Shown piece after piece: positions 1 to 35,689 of a DNA stretch of 37,095 bases (positions are counted from its first letter, which is position 1; each line of letters starts with the position of its first letter). The position numbers and the translations under genes were made by a program. The DNA lies in NCBI GenBank assembly GCA_003990765.1, contig RBNJ01000196.1, positions 1 through 37,095 of the forward strand. The letters are read 5' to 3'. The DNA is from Jimgerdemannia flammicorona (lineage: Eukaryota). The notes under the pieces are model-generated. The model was not told where the DNA came from. It did not search any database and was given only the letters and a program-made list of their open reading frames with translations.

Positions 1-59
1 TTTTTTTTTATAGTCTCTTGGACTCCTTCCTTTATTAATACATCTGTCTATCCAATAAA

Positions 60-3000
60 TATTATACTGAGCCCACTCCTATCCAATCCCCCTAGGGCAC
101 CCCCCTCCCCCCATACTCTCTCTCTTAAAGATTACTAGGTCATTGATCACCTCTATCCACCCACTACTCTGTTTATAAATTTCTTTTACCAGATGGTAGT
201 GATGCCCACCCTGGGGACCCCATCCAACCCACCACCCTATCAGAAAATCTCCCATCAACCTCTCTCATCTCAACAATCTCTCTTACAAACCCAGCTATTG
301 TTTCTCCTCAAAAACAAAAAGCCAATGCCCAGCCAGCCCTACTCATACAGCTAAGATCCACCCTATAGTGAGCTATTTATTGCTCATACTACCCACCAAT
401 CTAGTTCTCAAATCTTCCCAGTGACCTCTCTCTCCATCTGGTCTCCTCTTCACATCTAGCTGGTCCCCTACTGCTATTCAAAAGTCCACCAGAATCTTAT
501 ACTCTCTCAGCTAATGTTTTGGAGTCTATGCAAATCCCCCAACTTGTCCTATATTGTAGTACTCCTCACATTCCAATAGTCCACCATCCACCAGATGTCT
601 AGCATAGAAATTCAACATGACATTTCTCTGTAGCATCTACCACCAAACTACCCAGAACTTGGAAGGAAGCCATCTTCACACTTCTGCACTCCATGCCCAG
701 ACTCCTGCCCAATCCCACTCCTCACCAATCCTTACTATTTACCAACTTCCAGGTCAAAGGTTCTGACTGAGTCCCCTCTGGCACTCTATTCTCAATATTA
801 AACTCAATAAGCAAAGCTGGTCTCCATAGTATCTCTCCTTCATTGCTATGCCAGTATAAGTCTATATAGTGTACTCCATCTGCTACCCCCCACCAGAAGC
901 CTTTATACCATAGCCTATGGCTGTTACCCAGACCCACTAGGGATAGAAAATCTCCTGAGAATCCTCTTGGAGAGAATCTCATCTCTCATATCTTCTGCAT
1001 CAGCAGCACCCATCTCCCTCCCCTAAGTTCCACAGCTTACTTCAACCACCAAGTTCTCAGGCAGTGCAGCTTCTTAGGAAGATCCACCAGGCCTAGTTTC
1101 CCTCAAACTACAGGCATTGAAAGAGTATCCCAACTGATCTGAGACTGCCTCTCAGCCTAAATTCAATCCCTAGTCAGCTTCATCAGTCTCTTTACCACTT
1201 AAGCAGAAAAGTCCAAGTGATAGACCATATACTATAGCTTAGGGAACTAGTAGATATTCAAAATTGATACCTGGCCAGCCAGGGAGATATAGCAACCTCT
1301 CCAGTCTCTAAGAGCCTCCCCCCAGATGGCCACCCTCCTCTCTTACCATATCTATGATAAGACAGATCTATATACTGAAAGGAAGATGCCCAGATATCTC
1401 ACCACCTCTCCTGCAGAGACAATTGTTCCAATGATATCCCCTCTTACTAGCTCATTTCCCAACACTATTGTCTCACACTTATACCAGTTGAGTTTTGCTC
1501 TAGAGTGTACCTCATACTATTCTACTATCTCCTTAAGTAGCTCAACATCCACCACTGATCCAAGTCCAACCACCATATTATCTATAAAGGCCCCCACCTT
1601 CCACACCATACTATAAATAGAGAGTCCAGCCACCCTCTGCTGAATCCTATCCATCAAAGGTTCTAGTTAAAGGGCATATAGAATAGAAGACAGTAGATCC
1701 CCCTGAGGAACTCTTCTCCCTAAGGGAAGAGCCAGATCTTGGTGCCTATTATACATCAGCACTGCCCTACTGCCCTCCAACAGAGTTAGCATAAAAACTT
1801 GAAATAGTGGGGGAACTCCTATTCTGTCCAGTACCTTGCTTAACCACACTTGCCAGATCTGGTCATAGGCCTTCTTCTGATCCAAAAAGACCAGTCTCTC
1901 ATCCAATCTACTAGTCTGTACTCCTTTAATAATACCATAGACCCAGGCTGTCCCATCTCTGATAAGTTTATCTCTAACAAAACCTTACTGCTTCTCACCC
2001 AATCCTGTTAGGCAACCTTCTGTAATCTTACTATAAACATCTTAGTAACCATCTTTCTGTCTATATACAGAAGCATGATTGGTCTCCAGTTCTTCTAATC
2101 CTCTCTCCTCCTCTTGTCCTTGTATAACAGGGTCACCAGCCCTAGGTCCTGCCCTCTCACCCACTGGCCATTTATAAGAATAATGTCACAGAGGGCTGCC
2201 ATCTCTCCTAACACTCCTGGAACTCTTGCCATCTTCTTCCAAAAGTCCCAAGATAGTCTATCCTCTCCTGGTATCATTTCAAGCTTAGTTACCACAAGAA
2301 CTCCCTCTTGGACTAGTAGGATCAAAACCCCCAGGCTCTCTACTTGCAGTAGCTCCCAATTCTCCAGAGTGTCTTCAATTGCTTCTGTATTGGTACCCCC
2401 TTCTTCCTCACTCTACAGACTCCTCCACCACTCCTTCAGCAACCCCAAGATCTGTTGTATACTATGAACTATTTTCCCCTCTGCATCAAGGACTCTATCC
2501 CATCAATGTCACATTTATTTAGTCTAGAGGAGTCTTGACAAATACCTAGTGGGCCTCTCCTCCTTCTTAAGCCCCTGCTACCTCAACCTAGCTACCATTT
2601 CTCTCATCTGCATCTTCTCCTCCTCTCTTAATACATACCTGTTGCAACTCTACTACCTCCAGCTTAGTTCACACTAATCTCCAATCATTCACCTCTCCAG
2701 AGTTTATCAAATCAGCTCATTCCATCTACAATCTAACCAACCTATTTGATGCACACCTTATTTGTTTTCTCCTCTGCATTCCAGCATCCCTACCAGCTCC
2801 TCTCCAGTAAACCCTCACATCCTCTTTCAACTTCTTCCACTGGACATCCACTGGCAAACCCTCACATATCCAGCAAGTGATCTTCTCCTGAATGTCCTCT
2901 GCCCATAGATCCTACAATATCCTCTCAGCCAGTAGAGAGAAGTTGAGGTACCAATGTCCAGGTCCATCTCTACTTCCCCCAAACTGCTCCTACCCTAACA

Positions 3001-3700
3001 ATCCCCAGTGGTCCAACTATAGGCACCACTCCACCTCCAGAGTCCTCCAAACATCCATGCCCCAGCATTTGGCTATCAGTATTCAGTCAATCCTTATATC
3101 TAGTTCATTCACTCAGTGTGTATAAATCCTCTTTTCTCCCTACTGTATTCTGCCCATATCTCCCAAAGAGCTAAGGTTCTCTACCTCCTCTCATACATCC
3201 AGGCTGCCACTTCTTCCACCAGTACTCCTCTCTCCATCAGTTCTATCTAACTGAAGATCCTGCACTATATTGAAGTCACTCTTCAGAATATCTACTCTAT
3301 TCTTCAAGAATGTGCCCTCCTCTAAGAGACCCTTAATTCATGCAATCTGCTCACCCCTAACTATAGGGCAGTAGTAAGAGCCAACTCTCACTAGTTCTCA
3401 CCTTGATCAATACCATTCCCTCTATACCAAATGGTCACCCCAGCTCCTGATCCCACTCAAATCCCCTTTACTACTCTACACCAAAACTGTCACTTTGCCC
3501 ATCCAAGTAGTAGCTCCTCCCCATTCTCTAGTCCACTCTACCTGATTCACATATTCTTGCAATACACATTCTGCACCAGAAAGAGATCAGCCTCCAATCC
3601 CTTCAGTCAAGTGAAAATATTCTTTTGCTGTCCAGAGCCCCTTAATCTATTCACATTTAGAGAAAAAATGTTAGTTGTACTGTTCTTTGGGAATAATATT
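60..3700 (-). pseudogene. LINE ORF2 (APE endonuclease + reverse transcriptase), disrupted
   Basis: Track ORFs 1667-1906 and 2095-2325 match RT motifs; endonuclease motifs at ~3000-3675; multiple stops and frameshifts. Confidence 0.85.
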
Positions 3701-5550
3701 TAGAAGTACTCCACATCCTCTACAAATCCACATTCATCTCCTCCCTTGTCATGTCCAAGTTATGTTTGATAGCCACTTCCTCCTCCACAGCCATTTTTGC
3801 CTCCAATTCAACCAGAAGTTCAGCCATCTCCCCATCCTCCTTCTCCTGAACTCCTCCTGATACTCCAGGCAGGCCTTCTGTCAGAGCTGCAATCTATGAT
3901 GCTCTACCCAACAGTGTGCAGTCTGCTCACTAGTATCACTCACTAGCTTGGCCTCTCTCTCCTTATCAATCTCATACCCCTCTTCCTCTAGGAAAATTGC
4001 AAGTACCTCTGCCTTCAGTGCCTCCATACTCTATCACTATACAGAATCTGTGTCCAATGTTTCTCACTCATCACCCTCAGGTCAACTTCTCTCAACTTCT
4101 CAGTCACAAAGTTGTTCATCATCTGGCTCATCTACAGTAGGTTTCCTACCTTCTTTTCTTCTGGAGATACTGGCCTTCTTATACTCAGCATCATGATATC
4201 TGCTCCTACACTTGCAGTTTCATCCCACTCCTCCTCCATTACATTTACCAGCTCATCCTCACCAACTGCCACCACCTGACCCCCTTTCACTATATTCAGA
4301 ACTCCAAGTATACCTACTGGGCTCTACACATCAGCATATTCTCTGCTGCCTGGCTCCTCACAGTAGGACCTCATCTGATAAGAGAGAGAGTACCATTCAA
4401 GTCCTGTTCCCAGACTTCAAATGTACCATCCACATAAGAGTCCTTATGCAGTGACTTCTCTGCCCTATTCTGATCCTTCTTGATAATCTCTCTCCCCTTA
4501 CTAGCCCAGACACTCACTTCAGCACCCCCAGACTCCTCAATATCATTTGCATTCTTCTTTGCCCTTCCTTCCAGGCTTGCTAACAACTCTTGCTATCTCT
4601 TATACTCCTGAGCTCTCTCTCACTACCTCTTGTTAGTGCGGAGATTTTTTCATTCACAATCTCCAAATGTATCAACTCTACATATATCTTTCAGGCCTTC
4701 ACCCTCCACTCAACTGCTCTACTCATCTCTTCCAGAGTCTTCAATAGATCCTCCTCCTTCTCCTTGCTCCTCTTTACCCTTGACACTTTACAGATGAATA
4801 CCCTCTACAGTATTACTGAAGACCAGTTGCTTGTCTTCCCAGTGACCTCTTTCTCAGCTAGCTGAATCCTGACATCAACATCTTCAGTCCTGAAAGTAGT
4901 TCCCTCCTACATCTGAAATCCAATATTCACTATATTACTATACTCCACCATCATCTCCTCAACCCTCCTCCTGGTCTCCACTATTGTTACTATAGGTATG
5001 CCCTTCATCAGTAGCTGAACCACTCTGGGGTCCCACCTCAAGCACCATACTATAGGGATCACCATCTCTCCTATAGCTACTCCAGTCTTCAATGCTTCCT
5101 CTAGCAGATCTGTCTCCTCAAAACCCACTTCAATCTCCTCTAATCTCTTCAGAAACTTCACTAAGGCAGCTTCTGCTATCTGCTTTGAGATAATCCCCAG
5201 AACTATCCTTACTGTCACCACCAGGCTCTAGAAGTACAAGGTTGCTGCAAACTCTGAGATTGACTTTTTGAGTAATGGTGCCACCACTAGCCCCATCACA
5301 CCATCTGCCAGATCTTCCTTCCTCTTTGGGCCCATCTGCCCAGCCCTACTATCAATAGTCACATCTGGATTTTTTTCCAGATTTCCAGTCATGCCACTAT
5401 CAGCAGTCCCTCCCCTACTTCTAGCTACTGCTCCACTAGCCCTTTCACCCACTAGCTGAGGTCCAGCATCTCTCACTTCTCCTTCTTTCTGTTTTTCCTT
5501 CTCTCTTACCTACTTGCCATAAGTACTGACAGACCATTCTCCAGTCTTCA
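3700..5550 (-). pseudogene. LINE ORF1-like region, disrupted
   Basis: Lies upstream of ORF2 on the same strand; charged, coiled-coil-like fragments (4907-5221, 4371-4586); a homologous fragment recurs at ~34430-35180. Confidence 0.55.
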
Positions 5551-5699
5551 GCATATCTGTAAAGCTCCTCCCCCTCTACTCTTCTACCCCTCCTCCAGTA
5601 TTGCTACTACTACCAGATCTACCCTACTCACTCAGACTACTAAAAGACCCCATCTCTAGTCCATACTCTCATCTGATATATTGCCAGTCAAAGGTTTTA

Positions 5700-6740
5700 G
5701 GTCCACCTGACCTAGTATGCATATTAGCTTACTTGTTAGTTACTATGACCTTAGTATCTTTCTCCAATAAACAGTTCAAAAGTATGTTTCAAAGTTTATA
5801 TTATATAAATGGTAGTAGAGAAAGATGTCAGCATATATTACTGATACTTATTCTAGGTCTCATTTTGCTTATGTTACTTGGAACTGGTATACTTAATTAC
5901 TAGTATTAATCAATATTATATAGATAATATAGTATAGTATATATATATATTAAAGGAGTATCTTTGTTATTATCTGCTTTCACTAGTAGGGCTTACAATC
6001 TTTTATTATAGAATACTTGGGAAAGATAGGTAAAGAGAAACAGTAATTATTTATTAATACTAGCTTATATACTTTTATATATATTGATGATATTTACAGA
6101 ATAATATAGTTAGGCTATGTCACCACATATTGAGTTATTATTACTAAGATATTTCAATAAGTTTAAACAAGTAGAATAATAAACTTTAAAAGATTAAATT
6201 AGTTCAAAAAATAAGATAACTATTTTGACTTAAAGCTTGAGTTAATGAACTTCTCTTAAAAGTAAAAACATAATTTTAAAACATAAAATTAAAAATTTAT
6301 TAAGAGACTTAGATATTAATAAATATTAAGATAAAACTATATTTAAAACCTACATTAGTTAAAATAAAATTCTTTTATAAATAATATATATATATACTCA
6401 TATTTAAAAATATAACTTAAAAAGTTTATAATTTCTAAAATATAATAGCTTTTTAATATATAGATATATATATATATTAATAATTTAAAAAATTGAGTTG
6501 TATTTTGAATAAAAAAATAATATTTTAGAAAATTATTTAAAAGATGTTTTTATCTACAGATAAATAGATATTAAACTATACTAGAAATTTTAAAATTCCT
6601 TTATTTTCAAGCAAGATAATGTTTAAATTATTGTATGAAAAGATTCTTTGTACAATAGATAATTGTCTTAATCCCTTAAGTTTGCTTCCTTTAAGGAAGA
6701 CAACAAATATACCAGTATATGAAAAAAAAAAAAAAATATA
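5700..6740. other. Very AT-rich spacer, probably terminally eroded repeat DNA
   Basis: Strongly A/T-biased, (TA)n runs, no credible ORF. Confidence 0.6.
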
Positions 6741-6791: not shown

Positions 6792-7809
6792 TCATGAACA
6801 CGGAGCTGTCAAATAAACATAAAGCTTTTTACATACCCATAATGTCTCGTCCGTTTCCCCCGCAAAGACCATATATTCGTCATCTCCGATGGCTTTGCCA
6901 TCACCATTAAGAAAGTGGTTGGTCTCAACGTGGCGGAGCGTGAAGGCCTGATTGGTTTGCCATTTCTATATAAGAAAGAGTCATATAAGTTTGCAGTTCA
7001 AAGTGTCATTGCAATTTGATTCCATCGTGAAAAAGTGAAAAAGATCATTTCCTGCTCTTCGGTAGTGTGTGGCCTCTCAACCTTCCAATTGTTTTTACTG
7101 TCGGAATCCCCAAAAGCAGTCACCTCCTGCCCTTCCCCGCTGAGGGAAGAGAACTCTTTGTGGGAGTGAAGCATTCCGCTGGTCCACCAGTGTTTGAGCT
7201 GGATGACGTCGTTATAACGGACGGGCTTGCCCAAGAGGTCAGAATCGGAGGTAGTCGGTAGTACGATCCATTTTAAGCGATACGTAGATGGTTTGTTGTC
7301 GGCAAAGACCTGTAAATTTGCTCGTTATTCAGTTATCATTGTTAGGTCACCTCTCGCTCGACTTTTCCAATCTACCTACTACACAATATCAATAGCTCAC
7401 CATGCTCTGCCCGCTCCCCTTACTGTACTTATACATGAAGTTCGTGGTAAGGTATCTCCAAACTTCAAGCGAAGAATATTTGAGATCAATTGTGTCTCCA
7501 TATCGTATGAAAATAGGCTCCCAAACTGCCGTAGTTGTCGACGTGATAGTGGCAGTGGTTGTCGACCCGATGGTGGCAGTGGTTGTCGACGTGATGGTGA
7601 CAGTGGTTATGATGGTGGTTGTCGATGTGCCGGGGTTTGGAATTAGGATGATATTGAATATTTTCGTCGCGAGGAATGCCAGGAGGGCCACGATAATGCT
7701 CATGATCACAAAGGATTTCTCGCTCCTCCCTAACAAAAGGAATACAAGTAAAGAATGAGCGTGTCATAGTAATTCTGTATTAAACAAAGGCGAACTCACC
7801 AGTTAGCAT
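6792..7809 (-). CDS. Spliced MIR-domain (beta-trefoil; SDF2/PMT-loop-like) protein with an N-terminal hydrophobic anchor and Thr-rich stalk
   Basis: Exons 7809-7800 (ATG CTA ACT G|gtgagt), 7729-7401, 7309-~7052 and 6965-~6792 join in frame: MLTGRSEKSFVIMSIIVALLAFLATKIFNIILIPNPGTSTTT...IRYGDTIDLKY...GSGQSMVFAD...GKPVRYNDVIQLKHWWTSGMLHSH...GQEVTAFGDSDSKNNWKVE...KWQTNQAFTLRHVETNHFL. Three MIR-type motifs are present. The intron 3 donor and the 3' end are uncertain (a further donor gtatgt at 6836 is possible). Confidence 0.75.
7530..7630 (-). repeat. Imperfect 24-nt coding tandem repeats (TSTTTATI-like) forming the Thr-rich linker
   Basis: Recurring gtggttgtcgac units on the + strand. Confidence 0.7.
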
Positions 7810-8304: not shown

Positions 8305-9958
8305 AGCTGCCAACAACTTTTCTTATAGCATCAAACGGATTTACACTACACTTGTAAACAACGGTGCACTACCCTGTCCTTGGTATGGATACAGTTGTTC
8401 GTTACCACGTTAGGGTCCACCAGATTCTGCTGCATCTATCAAATTCCCAATAGTAACATATCCTGTGGGCTTCTTTTTGTTATGTACGTGCTAAACGCCA
8501 ACATAAACATACCATCATCCCTCAAATTCCAGCCTCCGCCCCAAAGGGTGTCCTCACTTATTCGACAAATGGTCACTCCAGTGTTGGCTACACTTTCCAT
8601 AATATAGCCTGCATCCGGAGTCTCAAGGAACACGCCCGAGTGTTTGAACTGAGTAAAGCCCAGAATATCCCGATAAAACACGGAGAAACCCTTCACAACC
8701 GTAGCTCTGGTAGCGGGATCTGCAGCGAAGTTAGTGCGTCAGTTTGGAAAAGTAGTTGAATCAAATGCTGATATTTTAGTAATGATATATTCATACCATT
8801 TTTGTATATGTTTATCCCCCAAATAAAAATTCGAGACACTTTGACTAGAGTCCATTGCCTACGATGAGGGGGTGAAGTTGAATAATACCCCGAATTTTAC
8901 ATCAGGATTTTGGAGCCAAATATATGTGATTGCGCGGCATCGATTGACCGGCATGTCATTTCCTCATTTGGGATAAACATTATGATGGCAGCTAGCCAAT
9001 GGAATAGTGGCAGGTGGCAGCTAGCCAATTAAGCCTTGTCTTGTTATGTATATACTCCGGACTCTGTACAACAAGTGGCGCATGCAGCCCTGTGGTGTAA
9101 CGCGAGAGAGAATCCCAGATCCTGGTAGAAGCCTGTGAAACCATATTGAGCGAGACAATAAATTTCATTTCATTCATACTATAATAAGCTCTACTTCAAC
9201 ACAGTTTTCTCCAAATTCTTTTTTTATACAACCCTTCTTTCTTTCCTTCCTTCCAACTGTGGAGACATACCCCTCAATACCTCTCATTTCTACAACAGTA
9301 CTAGCACGTTATAATGTTGCCCTCATTCGTGACTTTCGTGATCATTCACCCCTTCTGCTTCCAAATGCATGCCAAATAATACGGGTTAAACAATTCATTC
9401 ATTCACCCTGTGTCTTTTCTTCCGTCACCCTGCCTCCAAATCTCCTACTATTTCTCACCATCTCCGTTCATTGTTCTCAACCTCCATTCCAACTTCACCT
9501 AGTCAACCAGAGCTAGTTCATCGACGGTGCTGAACGTCAGAGTCCCTGTCTGGAATCTCGCCGATCCCAGTGTCGAGGTTACGTGAGAAGCCACATAATT
9601 TTACGCAAGCTTCCATTGTAATCCGTCGGTACCTAACGTATGACGTGATAGTCCCAATGGGTACGTTTAATTTATTCTCATTGCAGTATCGGGTGTTCGA
9701 GGCACTTATGGTTCGTTATTTCATTTCATGATTCCTTGACCTTCGCTCTTATTTTTTATTCATTCATCCCTCCCCACCCATAGTGAAATGCTCTAAGCAG
9801 ATAACCTAGATCACCCATCTTGGTTCGCCATACTTTGGTGGCAAGCTGTGGGATTGGGTAGGTTGAAAAATTCGGATTTGTGAATGAAGGTGGGGCTAGG
9901 AATCTGAATGGGCCGAGAGAGGTGGTGCGAATGGAAAAAATTAGTTGTGTAAAAGATG
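8305..9958. repeat. Segmental duplication, copy A (direct repeat of ~11670-13310)
   Basis: Colinear similarity from agctgccaacaacttttcttatagcatcaaac to ttagttgtgtaaaagatg / tcagttgtgttgaagatg, with many small indels. Confidence 0.9.
8346..8855 (-). pseudogene. Disrupted paralog of the PPPDE/LRAT-like gene
   Basis: Starts MDSSQS (Gly2 lost). Exon 1 reaches the intron out of phase. A net 4-nt deletion gives an early TGA at 8439, and a 2-nt deletion hits the GPYNVVTNNC motif (CCCTAACG vs CCCTACAACG). Confidence 0.8.
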
Positions 9959-11669: not shown

Positions 11670-13310
11670 AGCTGCCAACAACTTTTCTTATAGCATCAAA
11701 CCAATTTATTACATCGCGAGCGGATTTACATCACAATTGTAAACAACGGTGCACTACTCTGTCCTTGGTATGAAGACAGTTGTTCGTTACCACGTTGTAG
11801 GGTCCACCAGATTCTGCTGCATCTATCAAATCCCCAATGGTAACGTATCCCGTGGGCTTCTTTTTGTTATATATTGTACTAAACGACGTCGGATTAAGTA
11901 TACCACCATTCTTTAAATTCCAGCCTCCGCCCCAAAGGTTGTCCTCACTTATTCGACAAATGCTCACTCCAGGGTTGGCTACGCTTTCGATAATATAGTC
12001 TGCATCCGGAGTCTCAAGGAACACGCCCGAGTGTTGGAACTGAGTAAGGCCCCAAATGTCCCGATAATACACGGAGAAACTCGTCACAACCGTAGCTCTC
12101 GTAGCGGGATCTGCAGCGAAGTTAGAGCGTCAGTTTGGAATAGTAGTTGAACCGAATGCTGATATTTTAGTAATGACATATTCATACCATTTTTGTCTAT
12201 GCTTATCCCCCCAAATAAAATATTTGAGCTACACTCAGAGACACTTTGACTAGAGCCCATTGTCTACGATGAGGAGGTGAAGGTGAATAATATCCCGATT
12301 TTTACATCAGGATTTTGGAGCCAAATATATGTGATTGTGCGGCATACCGGCCGGGTTGCTGAAGTATCCGTATGTCATTTTCTCATTCGATGGCAGCTGG
12401 CCAGCAACAGCTAGTCAGGTGGCAGCTAGCCAATTAAACCTTGTCTTGTTATGGACATACTCCGAACTCTGGACAATAAGTGGCACATGCCGCCCCTGTG
12501 GTGTAACGCGAGAGAGAATCTCAGATCCTGGTAGAGATTCTACGACCATGAAATTGAAGCCTGTGTAAACCATATTGAGCGAGGCAATAAATTTCAATAA
12601 GCTCTACTGCAACACAGTATTCTCCAAATTCTTTTTTTATACAATCCTTCTTTCGTTCCTCCCTTCCAACTGTGGAGACACATCCCTCAATACCCCTCAA
12701 TACCCCTCATTTCTACAACAGTACTAATGTTGCCCGCATTCGTGACCTTCGTGATCATTCACCCCTTCTGCTTCCGAACGCATGCTAAACAATACAGCTT
12801 AAACTTCATTCACTCACCCCGTGTCATTTCTCCCGTCACCCTGCCTCCAAGTCTCCTACTATTGCTCACCATCTACGTTCATTGTTTTATTGTTTCAAAA
12901 CCTCCATTCCAACGTTACCTCGGTCAACCGGAGCCAGTTCATCGACGGTGCCGAACCTCAGAGTATCTCTAATCTCGCCGACCCCAGTGTCGAGGTTACG
13001 TGACACGTCGTCGCTGTCGCCAATATTAATTAACTCTAAGCTTCCATTGCCCTGGGATGCAATCCATCAGTGCTCAACGTATGACATGAAATGGGTACGT
13101 TATTGCAGTGTTCGAGGCACTTACGGTTCGATATTCTATTCCATGCTTCCTTAATCACCGCTTTTTTCTTTTTTGCACTCATTCACCAACGGAGAAACCC
13201 TCTGGGCAGATAACCTATATCAACTGCTTTTGTGCACCACAATTTGATGGCCAGCGATTACTGAAGGTGGTGGGAGACAAGAATTGGAAACATCAGTTGT
13301 GTTGAAGATG
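11670..13310. repeat. Segmental duplication, copy B
   Basis: Aligns by eye with 8305-9958. Confidence 0.9.
11731..12260 (-). CDS. 150-aa permuted papain-like (PPPDE/DeSI- or LRAT-like NlpC/P60) protein with an N-myristoylation motif
   Basis: Exon 1 12260-12188, 77-nt intron (gtatga...ctaac...gcag), exon 2 12110-11731, giving MGSSQSVSECSSNILFGGISIDKNDPATRATVVTSFSVYYRDIWGLTQFQHSGVFL...GPYNVVTNNCLHTKDRVVHRCLQL. HSGV precedes YNxxxNNCxH, the His-then-Cys order of permuted papain folds. Confidence 0.75.
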
Positions 13311-13475
13311 GGTACAACGATTGTGACCTTCGGTTGGCTTCGATGTCCTCCGCTGGACACTTGTCTTGCATTACCAAGATCTCACACCTGTACGGCCCAG
13401 GATCCCAGGGGTGATGCTTGCGGACATCGAAGCAGGAGGTGAGTATGCATTACCTCTTTGTTGGGGACCTCTACA

Positions 13476-13533
13476 CCGGTCTTGGCTACTCTAGGAGCCA
13501 ACTGACGAGCCCCTTGAGTAAGGGCGAAACCGG
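13476..13533 (+). ncRNA. Type III hammerhead ribozyme
   Basis: Stem III CCGGU(13476-80)/ACCGG(13529-33); cleavage triplet GUC (13479-81); stem I UUGGCU(13482-87)/AGCCAA(13496-501); core CUGACGA (13502-08); stem II GCCC..(13509-12)/GGGC(13522-25); GAAA (13526-29). Loop 1 UACUC is complementary to loop 2 GAGUA. Confidence 0.9.
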
Positions 13534-13577
13534 GGGCGGGGATACCTTTTAACGTACTCAATATTCTTTTCGGGGGG

Positions 13578-13600
13578 TTTTTTTTTTTTTTTTTTTTTTT
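13578..13600 (+). repeat. T23 homopolymer preceded by G6
   Basis: cggggggttttt...tttt, ~45 nt downstream of the ribozyme. Confidence 0.9.
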
Positions 13601-13849
13601 GGAGCGGGTGTTTGACAAAATAAAATAAATAAAAAACACTGATCATCTTTTTTAACTTCCTCTCCATTTCTCTTTCAACTTCGGCCCCTTCCCGTCTCGC
13701 GGCGAGCACTAGTCCATGCGAGACTCTTCTCGGAACTGTATGTATATGTGCAAGATGAGGATTGTGTGGGTAGGGCCGAAGTAGACGGTGGTGAATGACG
13801 GTGAGATGGGGAGGAAGGGGAGAGGTTTGGACGCCAGGGCGCAACGCGT

Positions 13850-15190
13850 AAGCAAGCAGATTGGCTTGGATGGAGTGGCACGAAATCAGGAATCGCAAAG
13901 TGCACATATTGTTTGTACCCAATGACCCAACAACCAGCTCCTGCTCATCTTCCAAATGGCATGATCCTTTTTAACATCAAATAGAAACTCAAAATCTGCT
14001 TCTTCAAGTCCTCTCCTTTTCGAGCAGTTCACATATGACTGTCCTCTTCAGGTCGGCCTCCTCATCTTCTGGGACATTGCCCTCATACCCAAATCGCCGT
14101 CAAATCCCAGTTGCCATCGCAGTCATTCGGTGTCATGGTACTCACCACTGGTAGCGCACTACGGCGATTATGAGACAGGTCCGTTGTGGAACTGCGGGAT
14201 CCTCCATGACTGACAGTGCAAAATGGGGGAGGATGTGCCGAGGGAGACACGGGTGGAGGTGTGAATTGAAGGTTTGCATGATAATGGGGAGATGGCAGTC
14301 AAATTGAAGAGCGGGTGCGTCCTCCGGTATTCCGTTATAAAGTGGGGCTGTGCCGAGAAAGTGAATGTGGAGATGGTGGAGGTGGCAGACTATGACAGGC
14401 GGGGCGGCCGAGGCGCGCGATACGATTTCGAAGGACATGATGGATATGGCAGATTAGGATGGCGATTTGGAGGAAATGAGAAGCGGTTAGGGAGGGATGA
14501 AAGTGACAGTTTGATTAATTTCTCCCCGTATCCTCTCGTTGATATCTGAGAGCATCACTCACCTTCGCTAACGACAACCTCTGCACTATCATCGAGCCCA
14601 ACGTCTGAATAACCATCAGTTCAATGGCGAAGTCCAGACTACCGTTCATCAGGATCGTCCATCAAGGTCGTCCATGGCGAGGTAAGACGTGCTTTCCGAA
14701 TCGGACGCATCTTGTATAAAAACATGACATTGAGGACTATCCTAATATGCTAGAAAAATTCTTGAATAGGATTCAACGCTAATACAAAACCGTTACAATT
14801 TTACGTCCTTCCCCTCTAACTCACCACTTCCAACTGCCATTATCCAATGACCTAGCAACTGGCCTATTCAGACGATTGATAGTACTCTCTCAAGCTGTTC
14901 TAACATCACCATGGGCAGCATTATCTCGGGCTCATTCGATGACAACACAGGAAGCTCCATCTTATGCACATTAGACAACAACACAGGCAGCTCCATCTCG
15001 AGGTTGTTTGAGTGTAGATCATGTTACAATTCCACTCGCAGTTTTATCAGATCTGCTGATTACACCACGTTTACCAAAACAGTGCCACTGCCACGAGAGC
15101 CAGATAGCTGACGAAGGAACCAAGTGCCAGGGCTGCAATACCACCGGAATAATTATTTCCCGAGACAGTATCACTTGTAGCCTGATTTAA
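13850..15190 (-). pseudogene. Possible decayed spliced gene of unknown family
   Basis: Protein-like fragments (FGYEGNVPEDEEADLKRTVICELLEKER; GLEEADFEFLFDVKKDHAIWK; MDDPDER..DVGLDDSAEVVVSE) next to GTGAGT donors at ~14825, ~14561 and ~14145, interrupted by stops. Confidence 0.25.
14897..15002 (-). repeat. Three imperfect 36-nt tandem repeats (EMELPVLLSNVH / KMELPVLSSNEP / EIMLPMVMLEQL)
   Basis: Units gagatggagctgcctgtgttg / aagatggagcttcctgtgttg / gagataatgctgcccatggtg on the minus strand. Confidence 0.65.
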
Positions 15191-15259
15191 GAGTAAGGTA
15201 GAATTGGTGAAACTGGTGAAACTGGTAAATGGTGGAGTGAATCCGGTCTTTTGTTACCA

Positions 15260-15820
15260 ATTAGCTATATCAAGTATATAGAGATTATTTAAATAATAAT
15301 TTCTATAATCCAAATCTATCATAATGATCATTTGTATATTTATTATAATAGTTTGATTATTTGAGAAGAAAAGCAATATATGAAATGAGAAATTTATAAT
15401 TATTCAAAAAAGCAAATAAATAAAAGGATAATAAAGCAAAAACTTATCAATATATATATTTTTCAATTATAATAAAATATTATTAATAGATAATATTACC
15501 TAATTATATTAGTAATATAGATATTGGTATAATTTTAATTAAAATCTCTAAAATAAATATTAAAATATTATTAGAAAATAAATAAGTAAAAAAAAAATAA
15601 AAAAAAAGTATTAATAGTAAATTAAAATTATAAAAATTAATATAATGATAAAAATATATAAATTATAATATAAAATATTTATTTTAAGATACTTAATATT
15701 TAATATTATAATACTCTTTTCATGAGTTACTATTATTATCTTTACTAAAATTTATATTATTGTTAAAATTTAAATAAAAAAAAAATGAAATAAAATAATA
15801 TAAAAAAAAGAAAAATATAT
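15260..15820. other. AT-rich tract (insertion site of the Gypsy element; continues at 28445-28680)
   Basis: Almost pure A/T on both sides of the element. Confidence 0.7.
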
Positions 15821-15952
15821 TGTGACGTATGCAATTGAAAACGGAGTACCGGTGACTGCTAAGATCAGATGACATAATGGCATGACAATCTAATAGACAG
15901 CCTGACCTATTAGGTGACTATCCCAAAAGAAGGCAAGATAATCCAAGCCAAA

Positions 15953-17014
15953 ATGAAGACCACATTATTTAAGGAACCATACTCTACCTCAGGGATCAGC
16001 ACCAAAGAACCAAGTACCCACTACACAATGCCTCCCATTCGCTGATCCAACCAGACCTCCCGCCGCTCTACCCCTTTGCCTGGCCCAAAGACCCTGATCT
16101 TTGAAGCTATCAAGAAGGCCATCTGGTGCCCAGATACTTCCGAACACTTGAACTTCTATACTGAGGACCTTGGACACTTCATCAACTACCGGTATATAAT
16201 GACCCAACAGCTCAAAGACACTACCAAATGAATGACCCTCTGGCATGACTATGAAATCAGACACCGCCTTCGCAATGAGACTCAAGAAGGTGACCAGGAA
16301 GACCTCATTGCCGAAATGTTAACCACCAGCCGGCTAATCAAGAGAGCCCTCCATGTCCATCAAATCTTCCACCATATTCCCTGGGCTATAGCACACTTAC
16401 AAGGAGTAACAGCTGGCAGCCTCTCCTGCCTTTCAACTGAAGATACTGACTGGATAGAATCTGAAGTAGCGAATGCTATTGGCAGCAACTGCATTGCCAT
16501 AGGAAGCCAACAAACCGAACCTACTCAGCCAGGTTTCCACACTACCCCACTCCGAGACAACCATCAAGGTCACCTAATGAGTCTTATGGAGATATTTGAA
16601 GGACCACCCATTACCATAGAAGCACCCATTGGAGCTACCCCAACCACCCACCACCTTGACAGCCACAATTCACACCTCATCATTTGGGAACCGAATCAAG
16701 AAGAAGCCCAAGAAGTTCCTGTCTTTAAAGAGGAGGCCCAAGAACTCCAAGACCCTGCCCCTGAAGAAACCCCCTCTGATACTGAAACTGACGAGTCTTC
16801 AGAAGAAGAAGAGGAGCAACAGAGAGTCTACCAGTCCTCTGTCTGCATTTAAGCTGTTCAAGGGTTGGAGAATGTTGTTGAAGATGACTGGCCACTTTTC
16901 TACCCCCTCACCTCTTGGCTGGCGCTTCCCCCCTTTGAGGAGAGATATGATGAAGAAGAAATCACAACCCAGCAAGATTTGCCCGCCACGGATGAAGGGT
17001 ACTATTTCCTCTAG
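15953..17014 (+). pseudogene. LTR (U3)-encoded ORF of unknown function, 5' copy (353 aa from ATG 15953, 328 aa from ATG 16028)
   Basis: One frame. Stops at 16043, 16229 (TGA) and 16850 (TAA) are CGA/CGA/CAA in the 3' LTR copy. Confidence 0.75.
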
Positions 17015-17039
17015 AGTACCACCCATCAGCCATGAGAAC

Positions 17040-17255
17040 CCAGCTTTTGTCAGCAAGTCCATTTCTAGTGTTGCTACCCAGTACCACCATTTTCAGCATT
17101 TTGTCAGCAGATCCAAATTCAGCATTGCCCCCCTCTACAACTGTTTCTGGCAACAATCATCATATCATGTCAGCTCATCCGAATTCAGCATTGCTATCTA
17201 GTGCCACCATTTTCAGCATTTTGTCAACAAGTCCGAATTCAGCATTGCTATCTCC
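17040..17255 (+). repeat. Imperfect ~52-68 nt tandem repeats in LTR U3 (cagcattttgtcagcaagtccgaattcagcattgc)
   Basis: Four related units; the same array is at ~27303-27518. Confidence 0.75.
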
Positions 17256-17380
17256 TACAACCCAATCCATAGTAAACAATAGCCTGCATCTCGCATTGTG
17301 CAAACCAATAGCATAAGTTCGCCACAACATAGTATACCTTAGCCTTAGTCACGCCCCCTCCCCCATAGCTAGCAAACTTG

Positions 17381-17412
17381 TATAAATAACCCATATTCTT
17401 AGAGTGAATAAA
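17381..17412 (+). promoter_or_regulatory. LTR TATA box (TATAAATA 17381-88) and AATAAA (17407-12)
   Basis: Both motifs are conserved in the two LTRs (3' copy 27644-27675), downstream of the U3 repeats. Confidence 0.55.
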
Positions 17413-18210
17413 CCTCAGCCAGTTTGTGTTTAAAAGTAAAAAGAAATTACTGAGAAACCTCACTGCCTCCAAGAGACCAGATAAATTCTGAGAACAAGAT
17501 AACAACCTAGAGCAACAGATCACTCAGAAGTTTGAGTTAAAGAATTTTCTCTTGCCATGGAAAGAAAACATTACCCGACCGCTGCCATTCGGACCGCCAC
17601 TCGACTGCTGCCATTCGGACTGCCACTTGACCACCATTCGAGACCCAAGTGACCCAGCCAAGGATTCAAGAACCGCCGCCATTCGAGTCCACCATTCGCC
17701 GCCATTTGAGATTCAAGACCCCGAAAAGCCAAGGAACTCAAGGATACCAGTACAAGACCCACCAGCTAGCAAGAACAACCGCCAGGAACCCTTTCAAGTT
17801 AACAAGTCAAGATGGACGAGCGAGCCATCAACCTCCGCTTCTCCGATTCCTGACCTACTGCACCACGAACTGCTTAAATTCAAGTCCGCTGTCATCGCCA
17901 AGTTAATCGACTGCATATTCTGCTAAGTTTATCGCCGTCAGCACACCCAAGTAATCACTCTCTGTTAGCAACAACACCTTTTTCCACTGAATATTGAGCC
18001 ATTGAACAATCGAGCATTCTTGATTTCAACCACAATCGTTGAATAACCGAACGACCTATTATCAATTACCACACAAATCGAACGACCCATCACGTGACCA
18101 TCAACCCGTAACCACCGCGAACACACTCAGTTATACATCGTGCACTTTGCCAAGTGGCACACATTGAGCCATGTAGTCGAAGTTCATTATACATAACCAA
18201 CACCACATTT

Positions 18211-18227
18211 TGGGGGCTCAACTGGGA
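18211..18227 (+). promoter_or_regulatory. Primer-binding site, tRNA-Pro type
   Basis: TGGGGGCTCAACTGGGA starts 3 nt after the LTR and resembles the classical Pro PBS TGGGGGCTCGTCCGGGA. Confidence 0.8.
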
Positions 18228-21200
18228 AAGTTTTCAAAAGACTTGACCATTTGGCTCAAGAACCCAGCTATCTACAGTGGAGAACTTAGCAGGACCAAGT
18301 CAGCAACCAAACCAGGGGCAGCAGCAGTCCTCCTCAGCAGAAAAGAAAGCCCACACCCTTGTCAGAACAGTAGCCAGGACCCTATTCAACAACAGTAGCC
18401 AGAAAACTGAATCAGAAGAAAGAAGTGACCCAGATTATGGTTTGACTTCAAGAGAAAGGAGACGACTCAGAGGACAACCAGAACTGCCCCTTCAAATCCA
18501 AGACTTAGGCCAAGAAGAAGAAGAGGATATCCCCGAGGAGTATCAGACCCTTATCTATAGGAAGAACTTAGACAGAAGCGACTACATAACTACTGTTGTC
18601 ACTCGAGTCACTCTACTAGACCGGGTATACTTTGAAACATCAGAAGGAGAAGAGGACTACCATCCATATCAACTAGAGCAAGACGACGATTGGGGATCAG
18701 ACCATCAAAGAGACGAATTCAACCTATACTATTACCTAAACAGTGACACTGACCCACAACAAGGTGAACAAGACCTCACTACTTCACAACAGCAAGGGGC
18801 AGACGAACTCACTATCAGTTATATCAGTCCACTCCCACCATCAGTTGCTCGAACTTCAGTACCCTGGTCACTCACACCTCGCCACTATCATCAGTCTATC
18901 AGAAGATCTCTACCACTACCCAGGACTTCAACCCCAGCATTAATTAGAAGAGTCAGATTACCCTCACCCTCACCAAGACACTGCCCTCTGCCAGCACCAC
19001 TAGATCATCAAGTACTAGCACCACTACCTTCCCCATCACCCTGAGGATCTGCCAGATCCCATACCCCTGAACAATACTCAGATAGTGAAGACGAGCCAGA
19101 CATGAGCTACCTTCAGAAGTTCCATGGTGCAGACAATGAAGACATCGAGGAATTCTTTGGAGAAATTGAAGTTCAAGCAGCTGCCAAACAATGGGATGCT
19201 GTAAGAAAACTCAGAATTGTGGAGTCACTCCTGAGAGGACTGGCCCTACAGAGGTATAATGAAGCCAAGTAAGCCGGAGGAGGAATCCATACAGAGGAAC
19301 TGAATGATGGCCTTCAATCTGATAGAAACCATGTAGCAAGATACATGATTCACAAAGCCTGGCTCCATGCCCAGTTCAATAGATTCGAGTGCCAATAAGA
19401 AGCACAGGAGACTTTGACCTATATGAGCCAAGCTGCCAATGAAACTCCTAAGAGTTTCTACCATCAGATTCCATCTCAAATAATCAAGGCGAATCTTCAA
19501 CCAGCAGTCCAACTGGCCCTAGCCTCAACTACCTTTCTCAATGGCTTATACCCAGAACTCCGAAGGCAAGTTATCAGGATGGGATATCGAAACATTGAAC
19601 AGCAAGTTGCTGGAGCACAAGGATGTTGGGAAGCAGATTATAGACCAGTATAACAAGTACAAGGCTATCCTGAGCCAATCCAAGCCGAAACCTCAAGGAC
19701 CCGAGGAACAACCATGGAGCAAGAGAATGCCTTCCTCAGAGCCCAGATAGCCAACTATGAGAACAGACCAGCACCCACAAATCCGACTCCATTCAGGCAA
19801 CCACAGCAGCAGCCACCATCAAGAGTTCAAGAAGACCCCATGATAATGCTCACCAAGCAAATGAAGGACCTGGCCATTGCGGTTGCCCAGCTGAACAACC
19901 AAGGTAGAAGACAACAAGACTACCATTGTGATAACAGACCAGACTACCGGCAACAAGACAACAGAGGTTCCGCCCCCACACTACCAGCTGCAACTACAGC
20001 CTCATCAGCGACTGGTTCCTATGGTCCCACCTACTTCAGCTGTGGAAATCAAGGCCACATCCAGAAGAATTGTCCAAGGAACCAATCCACCCAGTCCAAT
20101 GACAGAAATGTCAACCTCTTTCAGGTAGATGAAGAGACTCAGGAGATGGAAGAAGAAGCAGCCTGGCTCCATGGTCAAGAAGATGACATCTACCTGTACT
20201 TCGAGGCTTTTCCATCCAAGGTAACATGGGAAGCTGCCCCAGCAGAGACCAGAGGATGAGGAAGACCACGAAGGAATCCCCCACCTCAACTGCCAGTAAC
20301 AATATCCACAGGCAAGCATCCGCGACATGGCCATTCTTCTTCAGACACTCCACAAGAACAGGAGAAGCGAGTGAGAAGAGATACCCCTGAACCAGAAGCT
20401 GGACCATCTAGGACAACCCCCAGCTCTACCCTGCCAGATCTTGAAGAAGACGAGCATATGAGCATAGAATCTTCAGCTGACGAAATGCCCATCAGGAATG
20501 AGAGACTACCCCCCAAGGGACCAAGACACCGAAGAAGTAGCAAGCCCCATGCAGCAGCCTCACTTTGGGAACATATCTGTCTACAGAATGCTGGTCTTAC
20601 AGTTGAGCAAGTCCTCAAGAACGCACCAGAGGTCAGGCGAAAATTCCTGAAGGAAGCCAAGGAAGATACCAAGAGACTTCCAGTCCAAGGACCACACACT
20701 CAAGAACCTAGCACTATTCACACAGTCCATGAGAGCCAGCGACATGAACATCAATCTACAAGACTCGCCGATGGAAAAGTGCATGGTGAAAATGCCAGAA
20801 TTCTTGTTGATACTGGAGCAGCAGTATGCATCATCACCCAAAGAATGTTGGAGTGAATTGGATGGGGAATAGATAAAGGAACCAAAGCAAGAGTTATCAT
20901 GGCTGACGGATCAGCTTCCACACCCCTTGGACTTGTCAGTGACATTCCCATTCAAGTTGGAAAGGCCCGCCTCAATGTACCCAAAGCTGTCGTGACCCCC
21001 ACAACCTCCTATGACCTGATCCTGGGAACTGACTGGTTAAGCCAAGTTGGAGCCAATGTAGATATCAAGAAACAACTCCTGGTCTTCTCCATTCATGGAC
21101 AGAAGCACAAGATACCCATTGACTCGAAAGGATCATCTAAAAGGACAAATCAAGCCTCAGAAACAGAATGGTAAGGACACGGCGACACCCCCACTACTAC

Positions 21201-22233
21201 TGAGGATGAAAGCGAGGCCAATTTCCTACAAGAACTAGGAAGTGATTTCGATGCCCCAAGGGACCAAGAAAGCGAACAAGAAGACTCTTTCATTGGAGTT
21301 ATTGGTGTTGAAGGCCTAGAAGAAAGCATTGATAGAGCCATTAATGCAAGGGCAGTACTTGAGTTTGCAGGACCTTCTGCTCAACCACCACCACCACTGG
21401 TAGAAAATCGGATCATGCAAGCCTTTTGTCGAGGCACATGTGAACACTTCATCAGCTTCCACTCACTAAGAGATGATTGCAGCAATTGCCAAATCCTGGA
21501 TCTCAAGAAGGTTCCAATGCCAGAAATTGACAACAAGGACGAATTGAAGCAAGCACCATTCCACAGCCGAATACAACCTCCAACCCCGAAGACCTTCAAG
21601 AAGACCTATAAGGAAGGACAGAAGATCCTTGCCCGCCAAACATTCGAGTCCCTTACCATCGAAGGAGAAAGCAACAGCTCTTACACTATCACCTGGGCCC
21701 TCCAGATCACACAGCCCACCTATGACAAGTATCGGAAGAGATTTCCTACCAGTAGGGAGGTCAAACAGCGAAATGAAGACTTTGTTAAGAAGGGACATTG
21801 TGATTGTGGAAAAACCTTTACCTGCTACTGGTGTGAACATCAAGATGTTCACCTCAGCGAAGATGTCTACAAGAGCCGAGTCAAGAGAAAGGATCCCACC
21901 CTGCAAGAACCTCAAATTTGCTGGGCCTGTCGGAAGTGCAAAGAAATCAACTATGAAGGAGACTGCAATTTCAAGAGCAAGACCTCTATCTGAGACCTAC
22001 TATTGGAAGTTCTTGCCATCATTCACTGGTACTGCTGCCCTCATCAAGGAAAAGAAGGTGTCAATCTTACCTTCATCCTTTTGGAAGCTCTGGACCCTCT
22101 AGGAAAGACTGGATTCAATTACACAAGAAACTCAAAGACAGGAGCTCACTGGCCTTTCTTCAAACCAGAGTACATGGACTTCTCACCTACAATGGCAACA
22201 GCTGAAGTACCATTTCTCAAAGCTCAACCAATT

Positions 22234-22640
22234 ATCCAGGTCAAGCTGCTTTCACCCTGGGCATAGCCACCTCTTGCACAAATAGAAGAATCAGTTGGTT
22301 ATGACCTCTGCCTCCCCTACCAAGCAAGAATCCGACCCAGAAGTACCAGGACTTTTGACCTACAGATCACACTCGCTATACCACCTGGGCATTATAGACA
22401 GTTGGTCTCAAGATCCTCATTGGCAACCAAAGGAGTCACAGTAGAAGGAGGAGTCATCGATCAGAACTACTGAGGTCCCTTGAAGGTCATCATCCGCAAT
22501 TCTAATAGAACCAGCTGATTCTTCAGTCCTATGGAAGCCATCTGCCAAATTCTGTTTATCAAGACATCACAGCTGACCATCCAAGAGGTAGACCAACTAG
22601 AAGATACCAACAGAGGACAAGGAGGCTTTGGAAGCACCAA
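22234..22640 (+). pseudogene. dUTPase domain within ORF1
   Basis: GYDL, IPPGHY, SRSSLATKG, GGVIDQNY(R)G, AICQ, RGQGGFGST: the trimeric dUTPase motifs in order. Confidence 0.9.
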
Positions 22641-23006
22641 TAGAAATCTATGGACACCACCTATTGAGGTTCATTTGGCAACAGTTGCTCAATTCCGACA
22701 AATGAGACCCCATATCTGCCGCCCAATCCGAGCAAGAGAAGACATCCTCCTGCAGCCCTACCAGCAAAAAGGCCTAGATGTGCACCTACCAGTAGAAGCA
22801 AACAACTTGATATTTGCACCATCACTGGAGCTTCAAAAGGAATACCACATCCTCCTGGCTGAAGAACGAATTCATGACCAGATGTCACCGATCCACATCC
22901 CTATCAGAAACTCGGGCTTCAAAGTAATAACTATCCCCAAGGGAACAACATTGGGATATTTTGAACCACTGATAGACACCTACAAGGAAGAAGTCTTCGA
23001 ATTCTT

Positions 23007-23061
23007 GGGAAACGGCAAGCCCTCTCCGGTGAGACTGACGGTACCAGGGAGGAAGACTCAG
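23007..23061 (+). promoter_or_regulatory. Programmed -1 ribosomal frameshift signal (G GGA AAC + stem/pseudoknot)
   Basis: The heptamer is in the correct phase of ORF1 and a -1 slip enters the RT frame. A 7-nt spacer is followed by stem 23021-30/23043-52. Confidence 0.75.
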
Positions 23062-24482
23062 CAAATTCAGCAATCAAAGCTATCGACATCGAGACAACTC
23101 TAACCAAAGACCAGCAACAACAAATACAGGAGTTGATAGAGGAGTACAAAGATATATTTACCACCACATACGATAACTTCCCACCATATCAATACAGAGA
23201 ACACCCTATACATACTGGAGATGCAAGACCAATCTGACAATAACCCTACTGAACACCACATCATCTGATTGAATTCGAACAACAACACATAGACGAAATG
23301 CTATGAAATGGAGTCATCAGACCATCATCAAGCCCCTGGGCCTCACCAGCAATTATAGTACCAAAGAAAGGAGGATGGAGATTAGTTGTGGATTTCAGAA
23401 AACTCAACAAAGTCACCACAGAAGATGCTTACCCACTGCCAAAAATTGATGACCTCATCAATGCCCTTGGAAAAGCCAAATACATGACCACTACCGACCA
23501 GTTCCAAGGATTCCAAGTAATACCTATTGCCAAAGAAGATATCTGCAAGACGGCCTTCATCACCAGACGAGGACAGTATGAATACCTATGAATGCCCTTT
23601 GGATTCTGCAATGCACCCACCTCATTCCAATGAATGATGAACCATGTCTACTGGGACCTCATTGGAAAAAATGTACTAGTGTACATAGATGATGTCATCA
23701 TCTACTCTGAGATATTCAAGCAGCATTTGCAAGACCTTCATGAAGTATTCAATACCATTCGAAATTCAGGACTCAGACTCAATGCCAAGAAGTGCTTCTT
23801 TGGAAAACATCAAGTCGAATATCTGGGATATGTTGTCTCAGCTCAAGGAACACATGCTGACCCCTGCAAGGTGGAGAAAGTCAAGAACTACCCAACCCCG
23901 ACCTCAGCAAAGGAGACCCTATCCTTCCTTATGCTGGCATCCTACTATCGGCGATTCATCCCAAGGTTTTCAGATAAGGCAGCACCTCTCTGAGATATCT
24001 CCAAGAAGGACCAACCATTCTACTGGAAAAAGGAACAACAAAAGTCATTCGACCTACTCAAGAAGGCCCTTACCGAAGCCCCTGTCCTGGTGTGACCAGA
24101 CTTTGGCAAACCATTCATCCTGGCAACTGATGCCTCAGCCTTAGGACTTGGATCAATTCTGTCTCAGCAAGATGACCAGAAGAGGGAGCATGTTATCAAA
24201 TATGCTAGCAAGGCCACAAATGAAATACAAGCAAACTATGGAGCCACTAAGTTGGAATGCCTGGCAGTAGTTTGGGTTATGGACCACTTCCGACACTATC
24301 TCTTGGGAAAGAGATTTGCCCTCATCACTGACCATCAAGCTCTACAATAGTTGTTCAATAAGCCGGAGCCCTCAGGAATCTTCGCTAGATGGATCATATC
24401 TCTGCAAGAATATCAGTTCACTATTGTCTACAAGAAAGGTGCTAAGAATTCCAATGTTGATACCCTGTCAAGAATCCCATGA
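23007..24482 (+). pseudogene. pol: Reverse transcriptase + RNase H
   Basis: SSSPWASP, DFRKLNKVT, YPLPKIDD, MPFG, YIDD (23682-93), LATDAS (~24126), NYGATKLECLAV, TDHQAL, DTLSR. Confidence 0.95.
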
Positions 24483-24537
24483 AACCAACAAGAAGGGAAG
24501 GAGCCCCCACAAGAAAGGCTGCTTCCCACTCACCCAA

Positions 24538-25758: not shown

Positions 25759-26073
25759 ACAATCCTGTTCACTCTGTCTGTGTTGTCTCCACTGGAGATA
25801 CGATGGACGTTTTACTTGAAACTCAAGAAAGCCAACAACGTTGAAACCAGACTCAAGCCCATCCATGTGACAGACATTGTTACTAAGAAATTGCCTCAGA
25901 TTACAAGTAATACTATTTCCGATGGGTTCAAACCCCCAGCCGCAACTATGGGAGCCCTTGCCCTAGACAAGGATGGCCAGTCCTCACAAATGTGTCAGCA
26001 TTCTGCTCGTCCCTGGAGTTAAGACCACCCAACTCTGTGTAACCCTCACCGCCGAGGACGGCTCTAATTTTGC

Positions 26074-26083
26074 AAGGGGCAGA
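26074..26083 (+). promoter_or_regulatory. Polypurine tract
   Basis: AAGGGGCAGA immediately before the 3' LTR. Confidence 0.75.
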
Positions 26084-35682: not shown

Positions 35683-35689
35683 TCAGATA

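Follow-up and report, generated by a model that had tools for sequence, protein, structure and literature searches.

The window analysed here, a stretch of DNA of 37,095 nucleotides, encodes a genuine and sequence-intact type III hammerhead ribozyme on its forward strand, at positions 13474 to 13535 (Table 1). We infer its cleavage, docking, transcription and origin, and the reading that on balance we favour is that of a cleavage-competent, solitary, kissing-loop type III hammerhead, most likely left by a small non-autonomous mobile element. Three helices meet at the core, with loops closing stems I and II and with stem III open, and all 15 of the proposed helix pairs are canonical in a scripted pair list (five in stem III, six in stem I and four in stem II). 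Stem III is short, its 5 bp including the U16.1-A15.1 pair between U13480 and A13529. The invariant core is complete, comprising CUGACGA, GAAA, the U13480-A13529 pair, C13481 and the G13509-C13525 pair, and no invariant position is mutated. The first-pass annotation had described the type III hammerhead as intact and its stem III as open, which is borne out by the full-length covariance-model alignment together with the 15 canonical pairs, and its coordinates all agree with the sequence and the pair list. The cut that it had placed 3' of C13481 matches the placement of the GUC in the same alignment and, by analogy with other members of the hammerhead class, cleavage is predicted between C13481 and U13482.

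Table 1. Coordinates of the hammerhead, its component parts and the features discussed in the text. Positions are those of the window except for the last line, which refers to a metagenome locus.
Feature	Position	Strand	Basis or remarks
Complete type III hammerhead, full RF00008 match	13474..13535	+	Covariance-model alignment, model 1-54 of 54
Stem III 5' strand CCGGU, partner 13529-13533	13476..13480	+	5 canonical pairs; open-ended, giving type III topology
GUC	13479-81	+	Sequence
Predicted cleavage site, C13481 (C17) / U13482 (N1.1)	13481..13482	+	GUC position in covariance-model alignment
Stem I, 6 bp (13482-87 / 13496-501), and loop 1 (13488-95, ACUCUAGG)	13482..13501	+	
Loop 1 arm UACUC of the proposed kissing-loop/pseudoknot	13487..13491	+	Sequence, loop shuffling
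Catalytic core box CUGACGA (C3-A9)	13502..13508	+	Sequence, covariance-model alignment
Stem II, 4 bp (13509-12 / 13522-25), and loop 2 (13513-21, CUUGAGUAA)	13509..13525	+	
Loop 2 arm GAGUA of the proposed kissing-loop	13516..13520	+	Sequence, loop shuffling
Core GAAA, 13526-29 (G12-A15.1), then stem III 3' strand	13526..13533	+	
Upstream hairpin, perfect 12-nt inverted repeat 13337-48 / 13422-33	13337..13433	+	
Downstream U/G-rich segment and T25 run	13564..13601	+	
1.5-kb direct duplication	8305-9846 / 11670-13255		84-91% identical
Ty3/gypsy LTR retrotransposon, degraded	15823-28135 (about)		Integrase_H2C2 2.1e-17, dUTPase 3.7e-6 (Pfam)
~440-nt non-coding repeat	L071:1630-2070	+	Aligned relatives L108, L086, L097, L079, L090, L046, L122, L084

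The motif aligns end-to-end with the Rfam model RF00008 (Hammerhead_3) with a score of 44.2 bits, corresponding to an E value of 7.6e-9 in a search of 221 bases and of 1.3e-6 when the whole 37-kb window is searched on both strands with all 4227 Rfam families. The second-best match in the window, whatever the family, has an E value of 0.78, and no other ribozyme family was found anywhere in it, on either strand, at E up to 10 with all 4227 families. The gathering score of RF00008 is 48.5 bits; because the motif falls under this, a default Rfam scan at the gathering thresholds returns no match for the window. The shortfall arises mainly because loops 1 and 2 exceed the consensus length, core mismatches not being the cause. 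The covariance-model match anticipated by the first-pass annotation is found at full length, but with a score under the curated cut-off. The hammerheads represented by RF00008, from viroids, plant satellite RNAs, plant retrozymes, phages and bacteria, share the core and the topology of the window motif, which differs from them in its longer loops 1 and 2 and in its score of 44.2 bits against the 48.5 required. It also differs in its setting, being found once, in the chromosomal DNA of a eukaryote, and outside any replicon, prophage or LTR pair.

A score under the gathering cut-off might be expected of a chance look-alike without ribozyme ancestry, as might the behaviour of the core boxes, which alone occur at about chance frequency; the pattern CTGANGA...GAAA has six matches in the window with 3.5 expected. 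The three helices, however, are present at just one of these sites, 13474-13535, and the window-wide E value of 1.3e-6 with 4227 families, the full-length alignment and the 15 canonical pairs out of 15 all speak against chance. The same site is also the sole match in 37 kb to an independent model, R2, which was built from a metagenome family (described below) without the window sequence and which gives it 38.5 bits and a rough E value of 4.2e-8. A chance origin of the motif is very unlikely, and is excluded for practical purposes.

The segment UACUC in loop 1 is the exact reverse complement of GAGUA in loop 2, a complementarity noted in the first-pass annotation and confirmed in the sequence. 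As U13487 also closes stem I, 4 bp are unambiguous (ACUC/GAGU), with a fifth if U13487-A13520 is counted. When the loops were shuffled, 11% reached a complement of 4 nt and 3% one of 5 nt counting U13487 (p 0.11 and 0.03), and so on its own the loop complement is marginally non-random and constitutes weak evidence. The free energy of the kissing duplex is estimated at -2.1 kcal/mol for 4 bp and -3.4 kcal/mol for 5 bp. The case is strengthened by the layout of the stems, by published pseudoknotted hammerheads and by relatives that pair at the equivalent columns. Stem I is longer than stem II by 2 bp (6 - 4), a difference that in the accessible text of Perreault et al. 2011 (PMC3088659) is associated with pseudoknots in type III hammerheads. 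Mutation and rescue experiments reported in the same text show fast cleavage to be driven by pseudoknots between the loops, and about 40% of hammerheads are estimated there to use one. Among 39 distinct phage type III hammerheads, selected by core and stem II only, the 2-bp difference is the commonest (22 of 39), and at least four loop-loop Watson-Crick pairs are found in seven of the 39, as against 1.6 expected. A Watson-Crick contact between the two loops, as the first-pass annotation had proposed, is thus plausible, being of a type that has been published and tested (PMC3088659, as far as its accessible text goes) and that the relatives of the motif appear to share.

In the pseudoknotted hammerheads described in the available parts of PMC3088659, as is predicted for the window, Watson-Crick pairing between the loops of stems I and II takes the place of the non-canonical contacts. 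The tested cases given there are of type II and type I, together with human C10, whereas the pairing in the window is predicted and belongs to a type III ribozyme. The contact in the window would also involve loop 1 through its 5' half, unlike most of the sampled phage type III examples, where the 3' half is used.

Folding calculations do not return the hammerhead as the preferred structure. The minimum free energy (MFE) of 13470-13540 is -23.2 kcal/mol, with a z-score of 0.07, and the hammerhead fold has -19.4 kcal/mol; both the MFE structure and the centroid of this 71-nt segment differ from the hammerhead fold, with the competing MFE fold turning the loop 1/loop 2 complement into an ordinary helix. 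The hammerhead stems have a probability of 0.002 in the pseudoknot-free nested ensemble, a figure that calls for caution but comes from energy models in which neither the tertiary pairs of the core nor a kissing loop is represented. If the transcript is longer, stem II can also face competition from pairing of 13564-80 with 13507-24, and the fold of 13400-13610 is no better than that of shuffled sequences (MFE z-score -0.37). The 12-nt inverted repeat that lies about 40 nt upstream of the hammerhead forms a strong hairpin. The 3' strand of stem I could also be contested by 13330-39, a segment similar to the 5' strand of that stem.

These calculations bear on the possibility that the hammerhead is real but inert, a recent and as yet undecayed relic that is either untranscribed or kinetically trapped in a competing fold. 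Such a relic would be consistent with the non-hammerhead MFE and centroid of the 71-nt segment and its z-score of 0.07, with the low nested-ensemble probability of the stems and the alternative helix 13507-24/13564-80, and with the presence of a single copy for which no partner was detected in the window. The energy models, however, take no account of the kissing loop or of tertiary pairing in the core, stems I and II would form co-transcriptionally ahead of the synthesis of the downstream competitor, and there are zero mutations at the invariant core positions. Overall it seems unlikely that the ribozyme is inert.

The window as a whole is eukaryotic, repeat-rich DNA. The hammerhead lies inside an island from 7 to 15.5 kb with a CpG observed/expected ratio of 0.7-1.0, in single-copy, ORF-poor surroundings, while the ratio is about 0.00 in the old repeats at 1-6000 and 29000-37095 and 0.34 in the gypsy element. 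The first-pass annotation had contrasted the CpGs kept by the ribozyme with those lost from the old repeats. This is true of the hammerhead region but, given the ratio of 0.7-1.0 across the island, the retention is regional, a property of the whole ~7-15 kb and not specific to the ribozyme. GpC is normal where CpG has been lost (1-6000 and 29000-37095), and the loss looks like CpG-targeted hypermutation of old repeats. GC skew is strongly strand-asymmetric, at about -0.48 over 1-5000 and +0.5 over 36001-37000, and an inverted repeat links 99-382 with 28674-28957. The LTRs of the gypsy element are more than 2 kb long (15823-17898 and 26086-28135) and 90-94% identical, and the element has many frame breaks; gypsy elements bearing a dUTPase are associated with fungi. 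Taken with the CpG-specific decay of the old repeats, this dUTPase is an indirect sign that makes the fungal-type nuclear genome proposed in the first-pass annotation likely; a search with the integrase ORF gave a single match and told nothing about the taxon. Within the island, ORFs at 6998-7763 on the minus strand show a weak match to a MIR domain (E 0.0014) and adjoin a Thr/Ile-rich low-complexity stretch, and are possibly exons of a host gene.

The direct repeat closest to the hammerhead is the 1.5-kb duplication, whose end lies about 220 nt away on the upstream side. It carries an ORF of 132 amino acids on the minus strand (8439-8738 and 11731-12129) that has no Pfam match and whose atlas neighbours are clusters of mixed taxa; its H...NC motif presumably recalls thiol enzymes of the LRAT/NlpC type. 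The hammerhead was considered as part of this duplication and rejected, as the homology fades by ~13255-13310 and the first copy is without the motif. No second copy of the hammerhead region was found within the window. No long ORF or Pfam domain was found within 13150-15500, and neither a tRNA-like gene nor a pol III-like feature near the hammerhead. The failure to find a tRNA-like gene also led us to reject a SINE or a tRNA-derived element.

The same surroundings have to be weighed in considering whether the hammerhead has been exapted by the host as an RNA-processing signal, and kept for cutting a host transcript. The ribozyme might in that case end read-through from neighbouring genes, release an RNA of ~100 nt reaching from U13482 to the T25 run, or act inside an intron. 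The motif is intact and sits in a CpG-normal, gene-like island outside the decayed repeats, with the T25 run beginning 44 nt downstream, and GGUGAGU at 13438-44 agrees with the usual consensus for a 5' splice site. Hammerheads are also found in introns and UTRs of amniotes, according to the accessible text of PMC3088659. Against this, 13150-15500 contains no Pfam-matching ORF, the resemblances to a splice site and a terminator are short motifs of a kind expected by chance, and the tRNA-like or pol III-like features that were looked for were not found. A host function of this kind appears rather unlikely.

The first-pass annotation had linked the motif with plant retrozymes and with viroid-like RNAs, a link that is overstated for what is one ribozyme, on one strand, with no surrounding repeat. 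In plant LTR retrozymes, as described in the available text of Cervera et al. 2016 (PMC4918200), each of the two LTRs contains a hammerhead, and a circular RNA is excised. Like the window motif, these are type III hammerheads in non-coding, non-autonomous eukaryotic genomic DNA; however, where they have two hammerheads in LTRs (PMC4918200, same text), the window has one, with no flanking direct repeat that contains the motif. A plant-type LTR retrozyme was accordingly rejected on two counts, namely the single hammerhead in 37 kb (Rfam at E up to 10 and two custom models) and the absence of the motif from the nearest direct repeat (8305-9846 / 11670-13255). Solitary, and set in single-copy DNA that is poor in ORFs and normal in CpG, the window motif is no retrozyme of the plant type. 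Neither element boundaries nor a target-site duplication were found in the window. The flanks of the hammerhead have no short repeats other than T-rich tracts (13162-75 and 13588-601), which were rejected as a target-site duplication, the first tract being inside the older duplication.

Could the motif instead derive from a circular RNA replicon of fungi, viroid-like or ambivirus-like, a fragment of which became endogenised? Fungi do host circular RNA replicons with ribozymes in both polarities (PMC10162972 and PMC11721086, in their accessible parts), and type III hammerhead motifs are common to plant retrozymes and avsunviroids (PMC11721086, likewise in part). In the window, however, the Rfam search at E up to 10 gave no ribozyme on the minus strand or elsewhere, and neither a long ORF nor a polymerase-like domain was found nearby, although very decayed remnants could escape such searches. 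Nor did three patterns reveal a look-alike in the viral contig collection. This origin seems improbable. A hammerhead of a Penelope-like element was also considered and rejected, those being of type I with stem I open and lying in the terminal repeats of the element, while the window has a type III ribozyme and its retroelement is a Ty3/gypsy.

Relatives of the same design were found in metagenome contigs. A pattern in which the core, the pairs of stem II and the inner pairs of stem III were fixed, and long loops were required, gave 86 loci, with 68 matches falling in one family by regular-expression count. The members of this family lie among loci L045-L130, for example L052:1997-2059(-) and L071:1997-2056(+). 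The ORFs flanking the metagenome loci have Pfam matches in 6 of 40 cases, including Tyrosinase_C, Sec1, TPR_12 and Abhydrolase_3, which indicates a eukaryotic, fungal-like source for the contigs. Two covariance models were built, R1, which included the window row, and R2, from the metagenome family alone. R1 gives scores of 56.9-94.1 bits for the 68 family loci; its search of 72 metagenome loci and of the window yielded a single hammerhead in every case, so that solitary copies are the norm for such hammerheads. On RF00008, family members score 42.7 and 38.5 bits, under the cut-off, and a scan of 15 metagenome loci at the gathering threshold listed none; routine annotation would consequently miss the family. 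No description of it was found in the literature searched.

The 55-nt hammerhead is near-invariant across the metagenome family, and the flanks align only inside small subgroups, with a median shared flank of 13 nt or less. In one aligned subgroup of nine copies the element is ~440 nt long, with a fixed 5' hairpin, and ends ~18 nt past the ribozyme (Table 1). The 3' end of this element reads ...CCUACCA, and the copy at L084 is internally deleted. No target-site duplication was seen around the nine aligned copies, and a consensus fold, in which a larger conserved structure around the metagenome hammerheads was sought, gave the hammerhead helices only.

In common with the window motif, the family is of type III, has the stem II/loop 2 frame GCCCC-UU...A-GGGC and the same loop-pairing columns, and combines one hammerhead per locus with sub-threshold Rfam scores, but stem I, both loop arms and all of the flanks differ. 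The loop columns contain ACUC/GAGU in the window as opposed to GCG(R)/(Y)CGC in the family. Within the family the three central loop-loop pairs are broken in none of the 68 members, with one double change (GUG/CAC, L072) and one wobble (L081). When the window and the family are aligned jointly, six pairs change on both sides yet stay paired, two of them in the loop-loop helix, with the window row supplying most of the six. For the stems this 'covariation' is partly circular, because the two hammerheads were aligned by structure, and the search pattern itself fixed stem II and two of the stem III pairs; the loop-loop helix was absent from both the search pattern and the models. Within the family alone 14 of 500 shuffles reach two double-changed pairs, a statistic that is weak because the family shows little variation.

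A BLAST comparison of the window with the metagenome loci gave zero matches at E 1e-3, the flanks sharing nothing. With these unlike flanks, and with a score on R2 (38.5 bits) that is lower than that on RF00008 (44.2 bits), the window motif is not a close member of the family. At best it would represent a parallel lineage of the same design, outside the family. Closer sequences were sought with more restrictive patterns. An exact 30-mer of the 3' half of the ribozyme had 0 matches in the metagenome contigs, a fixed-length pattern of loops and core had 0 in the viral contigs, and a pattern keeping the loop pair of the window had 0 in the contigs of prokaryotic genomes. The stem II/loop 2 frame pattern gave one match in the viral contigs, which is unrelated and has a closed stem III, and no members of the metagenome family were seen among the 44 viral loci obtained with a comparable pattern.

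The genomic hammerheads that we found described from fungi are of a different type. Both the repeat-associated hammerhead of Yarrowia lipolytica, which has a pseudoknot, and those of fungal Penelope-like elements (PMC3088659, PMC10187678, PMC4209133) are given as type I in the accessible parts of PMC10187678 and PMC4209133. They too lie in fungal nuclear DNA, with interspersed repeats or retroelements, and it is in being of type I that they differ from the type III window motif. A search of open full texts brought up no account of families of type III hammerheads, or of elements resembling retrozymes, from the chromosomes of fungi. In the accessible portion of a 2020 review of mobile RNA circles bearing ribozymes (PMC7761336), the words fungi, fungal and fungus are absent.

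If the window motif is the solitary, cleavage-competent hammerhead that we favour, a transcript of the plus strand would fold around the conserved core into a 6-bp stem I, a 4-bp stem II and a 5-bp stem III, and loops 1 and 2 would dock through a kissing interaction of 4-5 bp (ACUC/GAGU, with or without U13487-A13520). Self-cleavage would follow between C13481 and U13482, to give an upstream product ending in a 2',3'-cyclic phosphate and a downstream product that starts with a 5'-OH and keeps almost the whole ribozyme. Being solitary, the ribozyme is unable to release an RNA circle from a monomeric transcript in the way that a retrozyme does; a read-through RNA would simply be split, with the body of the ribozyme staying on the 3' fragment. 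As to its origin, it was probably deposited by a small non-autonomous mobile element that bore the ribozyme. Such elements, each copy with one hammerhead, are present by the dozen in the fungal-like metagenome contigs; as the motif is not a close member of the metagenome family, this origin is proposed by analogy.

Hammerheads are the commonest self-cleaving RNAs, and to our knowledge the roles of their genome-encoded copies are mostly unknown. The window motif is a fresh example of this well-known class, with a known type of tertiary contact. Taken alone its practical value is modest, as a clean and easily testable kissing-loop type III candidate. Together with the metagenome family it suggests that there are type III hammerheads in fungi that have been missed just under the Rfam threshold. 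A more far-reaching and distinctly tentative proposal is that in fungal nuclear genomes there is a class of small non-autonomous mobile elements, as yet undescribed, which have a pseudoknotted type III hammerhead at their centre and would correspond in fungi to the retrozymes; the window would contain a solitary member of this class, and the family of ~68 copies would be another lineage. If this were true, such elements would be escaping notice through their sub-cut-off Rfam scores. The accessible text of PMC11721086 raises the question of whether 'viroid-like' circular RNAs with a single ribozyme are transcripts of genomic elements. Elements of the kind proposed here, if they exist, could be the DNA source of some of the one-ribozyme 'viroid-like' circular RNAs in fungal and environmental transcriptomes.
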